NCBI RefSeq assembly: GCF_044324785.1
Contig: NZ_CP172127.1
DNA length: 64,000 bases
From: Escherichia coli
GTDB taxonomy: Bacteria; Pseudomonadota; Gammaproteobacteria; Enterobacterales; Enterobacteriaceae
Strand: one strand, 5' to 3'
Position numbers and translations under genes: made by a program. Below, piece after piece: positions 23,774 to 31,441 of this stretch. The first letter of the stretch is position 1. Every line of letters begins with the position of its first letter. The notes under the pieces are model-generated. The model saw only the letters and a list, made by a program, of their open reading frames with translations. It was not told where the DNA came from and did not search any database.

Positions 23774-26700
23774 TTAGAACGTTTTCTTGAAGTTCAGCAT
23801 CACGCCTTTATCGCTGATGCCGTCCTCTTTCCAGTGGTAAGCATCCAGATTCAGCGAACTTTCTTTGCTGCTGTACTTCACGCCGACACTTGCCAGGCTG
23901 TTGATGCCGCCGCCCTTCTGTCCGTCATCGACGTTAAAGTGCTGACTGCCTGCGCCTGCCAGGCTTGCCGTACGCTGGCTCTTCGCGTAGCTCAGGTTCG
24001 GCCCGCCTTCCAGCGTAGCGCTAGCGCTCCAGCCGTCTTTACCTGCATAGTCCAGTTTCAGCCCGACGATGCTGTCCACCGCCGTTTCGCTGCCACTGTT
24101 CATATTCAGGTTAAAGTCTCCGGCATTGCGCTCCTGATAGCCACCTTCCAGTGTGTGACGCAGTTTAACACCCGCATATGGCGTAACCTTCAGTCCTTCG
24201 CTCGGTTCGAAAGTCTTCGCCCCTTCGCTGCGGAACTCCAGGTACTGCTGCTTCACGTCGGTATCAGCCGTTTTGTTTGTGTTGCTAAATGCAATCGAAC
24301 GGCTGCTGTCAAGGTTGTGAACGTCATAACGCAATGCGTTATTCCAGTTCATGCCGTTGTCGAAGGACATCTGATGTTTCAGGCCAAAGAACTGGCTATA
24401 ACCGCCTGTAACGCCATTATCACCCGCTTTCTGCGCACCGTCGCCATCGAGGCGCGCGATACCGTACTCCAGACTCATCGTCTGGCTTTCGCTCAGGTCG
24501 ATGGTTTTACGCAGTGCCAGCATGTCGTACTCGGTATTGTTCCCCAGCTCCGCGCGCGGATCGCCTTTCGCCACCACGTTGAACGCCAGACCGTTACCCA
24601 CTTTCGGTGCGGCATCCGCCAGCATGCTAAAGCGGTTGCTGAGCACACGCGCTTCGCGGAATACCGTGGTCGCCTGGCTACCGCTGACCTGTTTCAGGGC
24701 ACTGTTCAGTTCGGCAGTCGTGCCGACGTTCAGGCTGGTATACAGCTCGTTGTTGGTGTAACCCGCATCCAGTGCTTTCGCGACGTCATTAACCGAAGCA
24801 TCGGTCGCCACATCGGTATAAGCGTTTTTGCTCATAGTGACGTCAACGTTGCCGCTGGCATCGGTACTGCCTTTAGCGTTCCAGACAACTGAAGAGGAAG
24901 TGATATTCTCCGCGCCGCTGATATTTTCACCTTTGAAAACATCATCAATCACCACGGTAGTATCAGCAGTTCCTGCACTAAAGCCAGTATTTACCTTGAC
25001 GTTGTCACTGATAACAAGGTTATTGGCTTTCAAGGTGCCGGAACTTCCGTCGCTATTAGTACCAATAGTGTAATTGGTAAGTTTTTGCTGACTTACAGCA
25101 TTGACTGGTGCCGCAGGAACATTACCTTGCCCAGGCGTCGCAGAAGCGACCGGTACGATTATATCCGCAGTTCCATCCTGACTGTTTCTCGTCCCTGTGG
25201 TATTTGGCGCATAAATCTCGCAACCAATATTACACAACAGGTTGATTATCCCATTATTCACAATCGCTTTAGTGGAACCACCAAACGCCCATGAATTATC
25301 TGCATAAACGTTAATGACACCGTCTTTAGTATTATTAATCGTTGTTGCAGAACCATTTCCTTTGATGCCAATCAGACCTTCACCGTTGCTTCCATCTGCT
25401 TTGCCCTGTTCAGTACCCACGTTAATTGTGCCGCTGTTCACTAACTGAACAGTATAGCTGGTGGTGCCTCCGCTAATAGCAACTGAACCATCACCCTGAA
25501 CATTAATTGTTCCGGCGTTAGCAAAATTATACCCGCGACCTAAATCAATCAGTGGAGCATCTGGATTGATACCATTAATTACACCGTTTTCTGTATTCCA
25601 AATCCATTTGCCGTTGCTGTTAGAGCCTGTGCTGGCAGTTTTAATCGCACTGTAACCGTTTGTAGCGATAATTTTGCCGCGGTTAACCTGTGAAAGAGAA
25701 TCACTGGTGCGTGTGATATTAACGATGGCATTTTCCCCTCCCGCAATAGCATTGCCGCTATTTGTAAGCGTTGAGCCGGCTTCATTATAAAGTACGAAAC
25801 TGCCGTTAATTAAGGCACTACCATCTGTGGCAGTTGTCATCTCCCCCGTATTTACAACGTTTTGTTTATAACTATCACCGCTAATTACACCGCTAAAGCT
25901 TCCCTCATTGAAGAAGGCAGACCCGCCTTTTAACATTAACAGTTCGGTTGTCATACTGCCCGAGGCGCGATTGTAAACACTGGCATTGGCAGTAAGCTTG
26001 TCGACATCCATGCTCCCGCTGTTTTCCAGCCCCTGGACAATATTCAAATCACCATTAACTGTCAGGCTGGCCTTATCCTCGTTATATAACCATAGATTGG
26101 CATCGACATCGCCGTTCAGTATTTCTGTACCATAATTAGCCAGCGGTTTAATGGTAACAAAGCCATCTCGGGTAACTGTTTTGGTAATGTTCTCTCCACT
26201 GGCACTCAATTCAGATAACAGTTCCAGATTCTCTGCAGGAGCACCATAATGAGAGTCGGCGCTATCAATTTCCGCTCCGTTGAGATTAATCTCACCATAG
26301 TTGAGGATAATGCCTGTACCATCATTATAAAACGCCTGGCCCGTATCAACATTAATATTGATTACACCAGTTTGGTCGTTTATTGCCGTAGCACCTTTAT
26401 ACACTGCCATCCCTACCAGCGTATTACTACCCAGGTTTGCATCGTAATCTGCATTTTTCTCGAGGTTAATGATTCCCTGGTTAATAACCATATTACTGTT
26501 ACCGTAGGCGGCCATACCGGCACCTGCGTTATATACAGTAATTACACCACCTTCCAGGTTGGTCGCAATAGCGTTGTTACGAGCGCCACCCCCGGTGTCT
26601 GTCCCGGTTGCCATACCAACGCCATAATCTTTTGCCGTTGCCCCCGGAAGATCGGTACGCAAACTGGTGGTGTCATTGTCATCAATCCATAACGTATCCA

Positions 26701-31441: not shown

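Follow-up and report, generated by a model that had tools for sequence, protein, structure and literature searches.

The window, a stretch of 64,000 nt from an Escherichia coli chromosome, carries a single very long gene at the ydbA locus, in the order pdxI-ydbA-ydbL that is also found in other E. coli. The reading frame runs on the minus strand from an ATG at 31441–31439 to a TAA at 23776–23774 and has no internal stop among its 2555 sense codons, bearing out the original prediction of one uninterrupted gene, in which the strand had not been stated. The computed mass of the product is 261.3 kDa for the precursor and 259.1 kDa without the signal peptide, close to the roughly 260 kDa that had been estimated. 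With E. coli genomes the flanks of the locus share 99.0–99.4% identity, and the database entry for the exact protein names E. coli as its species; an origin of the window from Shigella or a cryptic Escherichia clade was rejected on these grounds. The features of the locus, from promoter to terminator, are as follows.

31538–31566, minus strand: putative sigma-70-like promoter, the best match found (CTGACA-17-TATATT, 10/12), a consensus match only
31448–31453, minus strand: Shine-Dalgarno sequence GAAGGA, ending 6 nt 5' of the ATG and identical in K-12
23774–31441, minus strand: ydbA-locus coding sequence, 2555 codons plus TAA, for the 261-kDa precursor of a BigA/YdbA-family type Va autotransporter
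31379–31441, minus strand: Sec signal peptide, aa 1–21 (MQRKTLLSACIALALSGQGWA, followed by AD), read from the sequence and kept across the family alignment
31262–31321, minus strand: Cys-bounded motif, aa 41–60 (C-P-x6-L-x7-L/I-P-x2-C), from an alignment of 20 homologues
31178–31240, minus strand: Gly/Ala-rich hydrophobic segment, aa 68–88 (LMPWVASGAFALITALAVVEL), from hydropathy and alignment
31025–31141, minus strand: Pro/Asp-rich linker, aa 101–139, read from the sequence and varying widely in length among family members
30782–31024, minus strand: BigA_N small β-barrel domain (PF25784), aa 140–220, E = 3.9e-32, AF2 pLDDT >90
27821–30760, minus strand: ten tandem 98-aa (294-bp) units, aa 228–1207, from protein-level units, TRF and AF2
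28409–30172, minus strand: three units (882 bp) duplicated perfectly in tandem, units 3–5 being the same as units 6–8
25187–27820, minus strand: non-repetitive passenger, aa 1208–2085, with no Pfam match and the part most divergent from K-12
24821–25075, minus strand: BigA_beta sandwich domain (PF25783), aa 2123–2207, E = 3.2e-27 and AF2
24614–24820, minus strand: helical junction, aa 2208–2276, from the AF2 model
23777–24589, minus strand: C-terminal autotransporter β-barrel translocator (PF03797), ending in NFKKTF, from Pfam, AF2 and Foldseek
23719–23754, minus strand: hairpin and U-tract resembling an intrinsic terminator, 20 nt 3' of the stop codon

The GAAGGA Shine-Dalgarno sequence lies where it had been predicted. 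The longer TTG start at 31459 given in the list of reading frames was rejected, as it overlaps this sequence and the ATG is the start used in the K-12 annotation and in the RefSeq protein alike. At the other end of the gene, a hairpin (AAACCGCAAU...GUUGCGGUUU) is followed by UUUUUAUU at 23754–23719, with a predicted fold over 81 nt of −21.7 kcal/mol (z = −2.3); the terminator had been called strong, a fair description of a hairpin that is present but not exceptional. The predicted stem contains an inner 3-bp stem-loop, and a pattern scan for terminators missed the hairpin. No RNA family was found in or adjoining the gene in Rfam.

The repeat stalk that had been foreseen consists, at the protein level, of nine units with 95–100% identity and a degenerate tenth, each built from four sub-repeats of 24–25 residues that correspond to β-helix rungs. 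TRF reports a 294-bp unit in 9.8 copies at 27902–30781, with 95% matching and no indels. The nucleotide unit types follow the order ABCDECDEFG, and a stretch of 953 bp is repeated exactly at an offset of 882 bp. Such an array is hard to assemble, and assemblies from short reads are routinely broken at this point, which yields many N-terminal fragments marked "partial"; short-read pipelines for strain typing or pangenomes will mis-call the ydbA locus. The same difficulty raises the question of whether the integrity or repeat number of the gene is an assembly product, the array having been miscounted or a homopolymer indel "corrected", with the true gene frameshifted or of another length. Strain N3, the nearest relative by its flanks, has this allele too, but there a G5 run, which lies at nt ~5595 of the gene (window ~25847), has lost 1 nt and the frame is shifted. 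Against this, a miscount of whole units keeps the frame because 294 = 98 × 3, outside the repeats the gene matches the intact allele of strain 19KM1831 (2359 aa) in an ungapped alignment, and the record is a finished chromosome of 5.48 Mb. We consider an artifact very unlikely. Unit number varies among strains, with 10 here, 4 in K-12, 8 in the closest allele from a complete genome and 11 in N3.

The two ends of the protein carry the elements of a type Va autotransporter. Its signal peptide can be read heuristically as an n-region (MQRK), an 11-residue h-region (TLLSACIALAL) and a c-region (SGQGWA) with small residues, Gly and Ala, at −3 and −1, in line with the prediction of such a peptide. 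An LSAC "lipobox" at aa 7–10 was dismissed as the mark of a lipoprotein, the h-region before it spanning only about 5 residues and Cys10 not being conserved in the family. At the C terminus, PF03797 matches aa 2329–2526 (E = 2.6e-18), and the AF2 model of the barrel has a pLDDT of ~90. The best PDB matches of this model in Foldseek were AaaA, EstA, NalP (TMt 0.68) and EspP, with E values from 1e-8 to 1e-6, and Hbp and BrkA also appeared; searched by sequence, neither the whole protein nor its C-terminal 449 residues matched the PDB. The barrel ends, as anticipated, in a phenylalanine (VMLNFKKTF), which could serve in the β-signal for BAM, and most homologues checked also end in F, a few having one extra residue (R or H). 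The last junction helix (aa ~2259–2276, model residues 324–341) is probably the pore-spanning linker, to judge by its position directly before the first barrel strand. The β-helix-like region is likewise supported by prediction: AF2 models give regular three-strand rungs at pLDDT >90, and the C-terminal end of the passenger, from aa ~1945, is modeled as rungs. Taken by these hallmarks (signal peptide, PF03797 barrel, terminal aromatic residue and a modeled helix before the barrel), the product is probably a type Va autotransporter and appears competent for secretion.

We compared the gene with K-12 ydbA, using the locus of NEB 5-alpha. In MG1655, ydbA (b4492) carries a pseudogene annotation, its three fragments being split by IS2D and IS30C, as had been stated, and removing both insertion sequences in silico leaves a clean frame of 2020 codons, as opposed to 2555 here. 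The two genes share the 3' neighbor pdxI/ydbC, the Shine-Dalgarno and start context and the 98-aa repeat type. Nucleotide homology is confined to nt 1–1696 (88.6%) and the last 1218 nt (92%). At the protein level, aa 1–232, which include the N-terminal module, are 85–97% identical and the last ~345 residues, comprising linker and barrel, 98% identical, whereas identity falls to 46–56% over aa 233–1800 and to 29% over aa 1801–2120. High identity is thus not collinear across the passenger (29–56% over aa 233–2120), and the gene, which had been taken for the intact form of K-12 ydbA, is closely alike at both ends only. Upstream, homology to K-12 extends no further than 35 bp from the ATG; the neighbor on that side is the feaRB-tynA-paa island in K-12 and ydbL in the window. 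K-12 represents the surface proteome of E. coli poorly.

This upstream region bears on whether the gene, although intact, is cryptic, with nucleoid proteins ordinarily keeping its transcription silent and the strain in practice phenotypically equivalent to K-12. The candidate promoter sits ~100 nt 5' of the ATG in an intergenic region of 27.7% GC and matches at the level of consensus only. In a K-12 rpoZ mutant, ydbA is among the genes with more binding of RpoZ-defective RNA polymerase and a higher transcript level (PMC5811629), and a paper on Salmonella adhesins describes the inducing conditions of most adhesins as unknown (PMC13228587). The K-12 data are not directly transferable, because the upstream sequence differs from K-12 beyond 35 bp from the ATG. 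We judge the chances of a silent gene to be evenly balanced; silencing by H-NS in particular, which had been proposed, may be suggested by the low GC content of the upstream region. Silence would concern expression only and is compatible with the autotransporter explanation.

The protein contains the BigA_N and BigA_beta domains together with a module of signal peptide, Cys-loop, hydrophobic segment and Pro-rich linker, and this combination places it in the BigA/YdbA family. auto_BigA (NF033178) is its sole NCBIfam match, scoring 2081.3 bits against the cut-off of 3400 for BigA proper, with aa 1010–2555 aligned to profile positions 374–1874. BigA of Salmonella and some E. coli (NF033178) resembles it in having BigA_N, a β-helix, BigA_beta and a NalP-type barrel. 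The BigA-type allele of E. coli EcPF15 occupies the same pdxI-ydbL locus and is 100% identical in linker and barrel and 74–88% identical over aa 1801–2210; over aa 1801–2120, the stretch that is 29% identical to K-12, identity to the BigA-type allele of other E. coli is 74%. BigA-type alleles differ in their N-terminal 230 residues, which are only 39–44% identical, in lacking the 98-aa repeat array and in a much longer PPDDGGDTPV linker. This distribution of identities indicates a mosaic allele, put together by recombination at a hypervariable locus and K-12-like at the N terminus, BigA-like in the part before the barrel and divergent between. The locus emerges as a recombining, IS-prone site for surface proteins with frame-preserving repeat expansion.

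In databases BigA is named [quoted passage not shown]; the papers found describe no mechanism for it. Celik et al. (PMC3419190) describe it as an AIDA-I-like passenger on a NalP-type barrel. Like the AIDA-I-type or self-associating autotransporters (Ag43, AIDA-I and TibA), the window protein is a monomeric type Va protein with a long β-helical passenger of short imperfect repeats, the number of which varies between strains. UpaH, a large repetitive autotransporter of uropathogenic E. coli that is grouped with the AIDA-I types, is likewise monomeric, with a long repeat-built β-helical passenger. The barrel differs from theirs, belonging to the NalP-like and not the AIDA group according to the placement of BigA (PMC3419190), and three Pfam scans that between them span the whole protein gave no match to the AIDA or Pertactin domains by which AIDA-I/SAAT proteins are recognized.

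The exact protein is present in RefSeq as WP_395765644.1, whose 90% cluster has 1070 members, with lengths of 1673, 2065, 2163, 2261 and 2555 residues that reflect 98-aa steps. Among the matches listed, more than 100 are intact E. coli relatives of 1.8–2.7 kaa, and according to a 2016 paper (PMC4951805), ydbA is present at full length in about 42% of strains of phylogroup A. The rarity implied by the original prediction does not survive these counts: intact alleles are widespread and annotated, and the finding is real but ordinary, of an allele already known and catalogued. As a discovery it is small, with the protein in RefSeq, intact alleles common and the pseudogene status in K-12 a matter of textbook annotation. 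A search with the window protein returned no contigs encoding it exactly, and one with the N-terminal 226 residues yielded nothing but fragments at the contig ends of draft assemblies; distant relatives were reached by an all-against-all search of representatives.

The gene is probably an intact allele of the E. coli ydbA/bigA locus, of mosaic origin, that encodes a classical monomeric type Va autotransporter. Following the established type Va pathway, Sec would take the precursor across the inner membrane by its 21-residue signal peptide, and BAM would fold the C-terminal domain into a 12-stranded outer-membrane barrel whose pore holds a helix. The passenger of ~2250 residues would then thread outward from C to N terminus and fold into a long right-handed β-helix, so that the BigA_N domain and Pro-rich tether would finish at the distal tip. 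At ~24.5 residues per rung, we estimate that the ten 98-residue repeats would form ~40 rungs and span roughly 19 nm, making a stalk of variable length that may grow and shrink by unequal recombination in frame-preserving steps of 294 bp. A surface adhesin or aggregation factor is the most probable function because of the analogy with other β-helical autotransporters, and the adhesin or biofilm function that had been put forward may be read in the same light. Weighing against this explanation are the score below the BigA cut-off, the frameshifted copy in N3 and the passenger itself, in which no adhesin, protease or lectin domain is recognizable (Pfam gave no match in the central 1200 residues). 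A literature search on ydbA with autotransporter, H-NS or adhesin found no functional study of YdbA. Functional studies of the BigA/YdbA family and its conserved N-terminal module could start from the intact allele.

That module comprises, besides the Pro-rich string of the prediction, found at aa 101–139, a Cys-loop and a Gly/Ala-rich hydrophobic segment that are conserved family-wide near the N terminus. The segment is unexpected in a type Va passenger and could complicate export. Reading it from M69 as the true signal peptide was rejected, as it would have no positive n-region and the Met is not conserved there.

An alternative to the adhesin explanation, prompted by the sequence of this module, gives the protein a primary role other than that of an adhesin: the Cys-loop and hydrophobic segment, carried on the Pro-rich tether, would form, at the distal tip, an element for membrane activity or homotypic contact, the segment inserting into a target membrane or zipping to its counterpart on another cell. 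Across 20 homologues, some with as little as 30% identity, C41, C60 and G75 are invariant and the segment is conserved; nowhere outside aa 68–88 does the Kyte-Doolittle mean of a 19-aa window exceed 1.4, the peak in the segment being 1.99, and the acidic and His residues that come after it disfavor a stop-transfer role. The autotransporter toxin VacA, with its hydrophobic N terminus bearing GxxxG, offers a precedent. However, the segment is modeled by AF2 at a pLDDT of only ~30 (the Cys-loop region reaches ~70, with short helices), Foldseek gave no significant structural match for the N-terminal model (best E 0.15), and a search of the literature on N-terminal hydrophobic or proline-rich elements of autotransporters found no relevant or supporting paper. 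The segment could equally be a transient, ESPR-like tether to the inner membrane during export. We regard a membrane-active or homotypic element as improbable, and the surface adhesin remains the preferred reading. The broader proposal that the stalk-tip module of BigA/YdbA (a disulfide-bounded C41...C60 loop, a fusion-peptide-like helix at aa 68–88 and a variable Pro-rich tether) might serve on target cells as a membrane-inserting or homotypic "zipper", or else form a transient inner-membrane tether organizing export of the passenger of more than 2000 residues is itself doubtful; if it were true, an intact allele like that of the window would be a natural substrate for testing it.

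The ydbA locus of the window carries one continuous open reading frame, which runs through 2555 sense codons without an internal stop, as the original prediction had described without stating the strand. A GAAGGA sequence and a 6-nt spacer precede the ATG in an arrangement that exactly matches K-12, and the product translated from this codon is identical to RefSeq protein WP_395765644.1 (XJR02741.1), which comes from a 5.48-Mb E. coli chromosome. A TTG start at 31459, taken from a mechanical ORF list, was rejected because that codon overlaps the ribosome-binding site. The product has a mass of 261.3 kDa (259.1 kDa without residues 1-21) and a pI of 4.1, and Gly, Asn, Thr, and Asp are abundant in it. 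Every feature that the prediction listed, namely the signal peptide, Pro-rich string, repeats, C-terminal β-domain, terminal Phe, Shine-Dalgarno sequence, and terminator hairpin, was found. Rfam returned no family match inside or adjoining the gene.

Features of the ydbA-locus gene (minus strand) and its product
23774-31441, minus strand: ydbA-locus gene, ATG at 31441, TAA at 23776-23774
20 nt past the stop: hairpin with U-tract, 81-nt fold of -21.7 kcal/mol, z = -2.3
aa 1-21: predicted Sec-type signal peptide of the standard type (MQRK / TLLSACIALAL / SGQGWA, then AD)
aa 41-60: Cys-bounded motif, C41-P-x6-L-x7-(L/I)-P-x2-C60
aa 68-88: Gly/Ala-rich hydrophobic segment, about 20 residues, consensus WxWxAGGxAAxxAxVA
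aa 101-139: Pro-rich string
aa 140-220: BigA_N (PF25784, Pfam)
aa 228-1207: array of 98-residue repeats
aa 2123-2207: BigA_beta (PF25783, Pfam)
aa 2329-2526: autotransporter β-domain, the barrel (Pfam)
C-terminal end: KKTF

That the K-12 gene is broken by IS2 and IS30 is borne out by the MG1655 annotation, where b4492 is a pseudogene split into three pieces by IS2D and IS30C. A clean 2020-codon ORF results when both elements are cut out of a K-12 sequence together with the duplicated target sites (AACCC and CT), so the loss of the K-12 gene is due to the insertions alone. The earlier interpretation, that this strain can make a surface protein that K-12 cannot, is partly supported: it holds for coding capacity but not for identity with the K-12 allele, to which homology is only partial (29-56% over residues 233-2120). 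At the nucleotide level, homology to K-12 is limited to two stretches: gene nt 1-1696, at 88.6%, and the final 1218 nt, at 92%. In E. coli EcPF15, a BigA-type allele occupies the very same position between pdxI and ydbL. Judged by its segment-wise identities to these two alleles, the window allele is a recombinant mosaic.

Amino acid identity of the window protein to the K-12 and EcPF15 (BigA-type) alleles
aa 1-232: K-12 85-97%, EcPF15 39-44%
aa 233-1800: K-12 46-56%, EcPF15 27-49%
aa 1801-2120: K-12 29%, EcPF15 74%
aa 2121-2210 (BigA_beta): K-12 66%, EcPF15 88%
Linker and barrel: K-12 98-99%, EcPF15 100%

By sequence or model, the protein shows all of the sequence hallmarks of a type Va autotransporter: a predicted signal peptide, β-helical passenger, helical linker, barrel, and terminal Phe. 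The sole NCBIfam match is auto_BigA (NF033178), whose score of 2081 bits falls below the cut-off of 3400; the central 1200 residues have no Pfam match, and sequence searches of the PDB with the protein gave none. An AlphaFold2 (AF2) model of residues 1-330, built from an alignment of 20 sequences, has low confidence at residues 1-36 and 62-135 and a pLDDT above 90 from residue 140 on, where a small β-barrel domain is followed by regular three-strand β-helix rungs. The model of the last 620 residues (mean pLDDT of 83) runs from the end of the β-helix through a disordered linker of ≈30 residues, a β-sandwich, and a helical junction to the barrel; its best PDB structure matches are the autotransporter translocators AaaA, EstA, NalP (TM of 0.68 on target), EspP, Hbp, and BrkA. 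On the established type Va pathway, the precursor would be exported by Sec, the barrel inserted with the assistance of BAM, and the passenger translocated from C to N terminus as a rigid fibre with its N terminus distal.

The repeat array comprises 9.8 copies of a 294-bp unit (95% matching, without indels), corresponding in the protein to nine units of 95-100% identity and a degenerate tenth, each built of four sub-repeats of 24-25 residues. If each rung takes about 24.5 residues, the array by itself would contribute about 40 rungs, or roughly 19 nm; its copy number changes in steps that keep the reading frame. The nucleotide order of the units is ABCDECDEFG, units 6-8 (28409-29290) being an exact copy of units 3-5 (29291-30172). 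This exact three-unit tandem duplication of 882 bp (28409-30172), in which perfect identity reaches 953 bp, is the product of an unequal crossover that took place very recently, or else marks a spot where the assembly needs checking.

Neither the gene nor its annotation is new. Its 90% cluster holds 1070 members with lengths of 1673, 2065, 2163, 2261, and 2555 residues, that is, in 98-residue steps, and the nearest allele in complete RefSeq genomes, from the dog strain 19KM1831, is two units shorter (2359 residues). The strain nearest to the window by its flanks, N3, has the same allele with eleven units (L005, 9475-17435). One base of a G5 run is missing there (gene nt ~5595, window ~25847), and the gene is annotated as frameshifted; it may be a true pseudogene, or the homopolymer may have been misread in sequencing. 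The best 120 listed matches, 1.8-2.7 kaa in length, are intact members of the family and come almost exclusively from E. coli, CFT073 among them. Part of the window allele is matched in 3124 of 5426 complete E. coli genomes, and 209 have 80% or more of it at a single place; in other genomes the gene is interrupted by IS1, IS3, or IS2/IS30, or no more than a remnant of the barrel is left (e.g., O157:H7). According to a published pangenome analysis (PMC4951805), about 42% of phylogroup A has full-length ydbA. Family members also occur in E. albertii, Citrobacter, Enterobacter, Rahnella, and related bacteria. Many RefSeq/PGAP records of 2.3-2.7-kaa relatives bear the name "EntS/YbdA MFS transporter," which looks like a YdbA/YbdA confusion spread over dozens of the listed protein records.

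The sole part of the locus with some potential for novelty lies between the signal peptide and the Pro-rich linker (31178-31321, residues 41-88), where an alignment of 20 homologues, down to 30% identity, reveals two conserved elements. Both cysteines of the Cys-bounded motif and Gly75 of the hydrophobic segment are invariant; behind the segment come a His-rich patch and then a linker whose length varies greatly. The protein has no strongly hydrophobic stretch other than residues 68-88 (mean Kyte-Doolittle value of 1.99 across 19 residues), and a type Va passenger would not be expected to carry a transmembrane-like helix behind its cleaved signal peptide. Residues 41-88 have no Pfam model or confident AF2 structure, and we found no literature on this region. 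Once the passenger is secreted, the hydrophobic segment would sit at the distal tip; from its sequence, it might serve transiently as an inner-membrane tether, or else form a tip element that is membrane-active or self-associates.

We found no experimental work on YdbA, and BigA appears in the literature only as a putative adhesin or pseudogene marker; by analogy, we infer that the protein may act in adhesion, aggregation, or biofilm formation. H-NS silencing is plausible because the 480-bp intergenic region upstream has a GC content of 27.7%. The gene order is hrpA-azoR-ynbDCBA-ydbD-pdxI-ydbA-ydbL-ynbE-ydbH-ldhA. In K-12, the feaRB-tynA-paa island precedes ydbA, whereas the window lacks it, so that ydbL/ynbE/ydbH abut ydbA. 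Upstream of the ATG, similarity to K-12 reaches no farther than 35 bp (31476); the island boundary thus falls essentially at the ydbA promoter (31442-32438 and 31476). With the upstream homology ending there and the island missing, regulatory data from K-12 need not apply.

Elsewhere in the window, uspF and ttcA adjoin with a gap of 175 bp (42436-44053), and this strain lacks the Rac prophage, which in K-12 lies next to ttcA. An EmrA/EmrK-type adaptor, a ≈500-residue ORF, and an AraC-family regulator occupy 49282-52733 and are not known from the K-12 gene order at that position; matching genomes have a DHA2 MFS permease annotated somewhere within this region. An IS1 copy (62692-63459) abuts a truncated oppA/mppA-like ORF (63455-63964), and this ≈0.8-kb insertion is missing here from most E. 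coli genomes.

Other features of the window
4554-4705, 5265-5328, 40889-41009, 45820-45937, 52804-52899: sRNAs Sok, RydC, MicC, FnrS, and McaS, respectively (Rfam, above gathering scores)
49282-50796: ≈500-residue ORF beside the adaptor
50793-51824: EmrA/EmrK-type adaptor, adjoining the abg region
51918-52733: AraC-family regulator, adjoining the abg region
62692: left end of IS1, exact match
62747-63022: insA-like ORF
62941-63444: insB, IS1 transposase match
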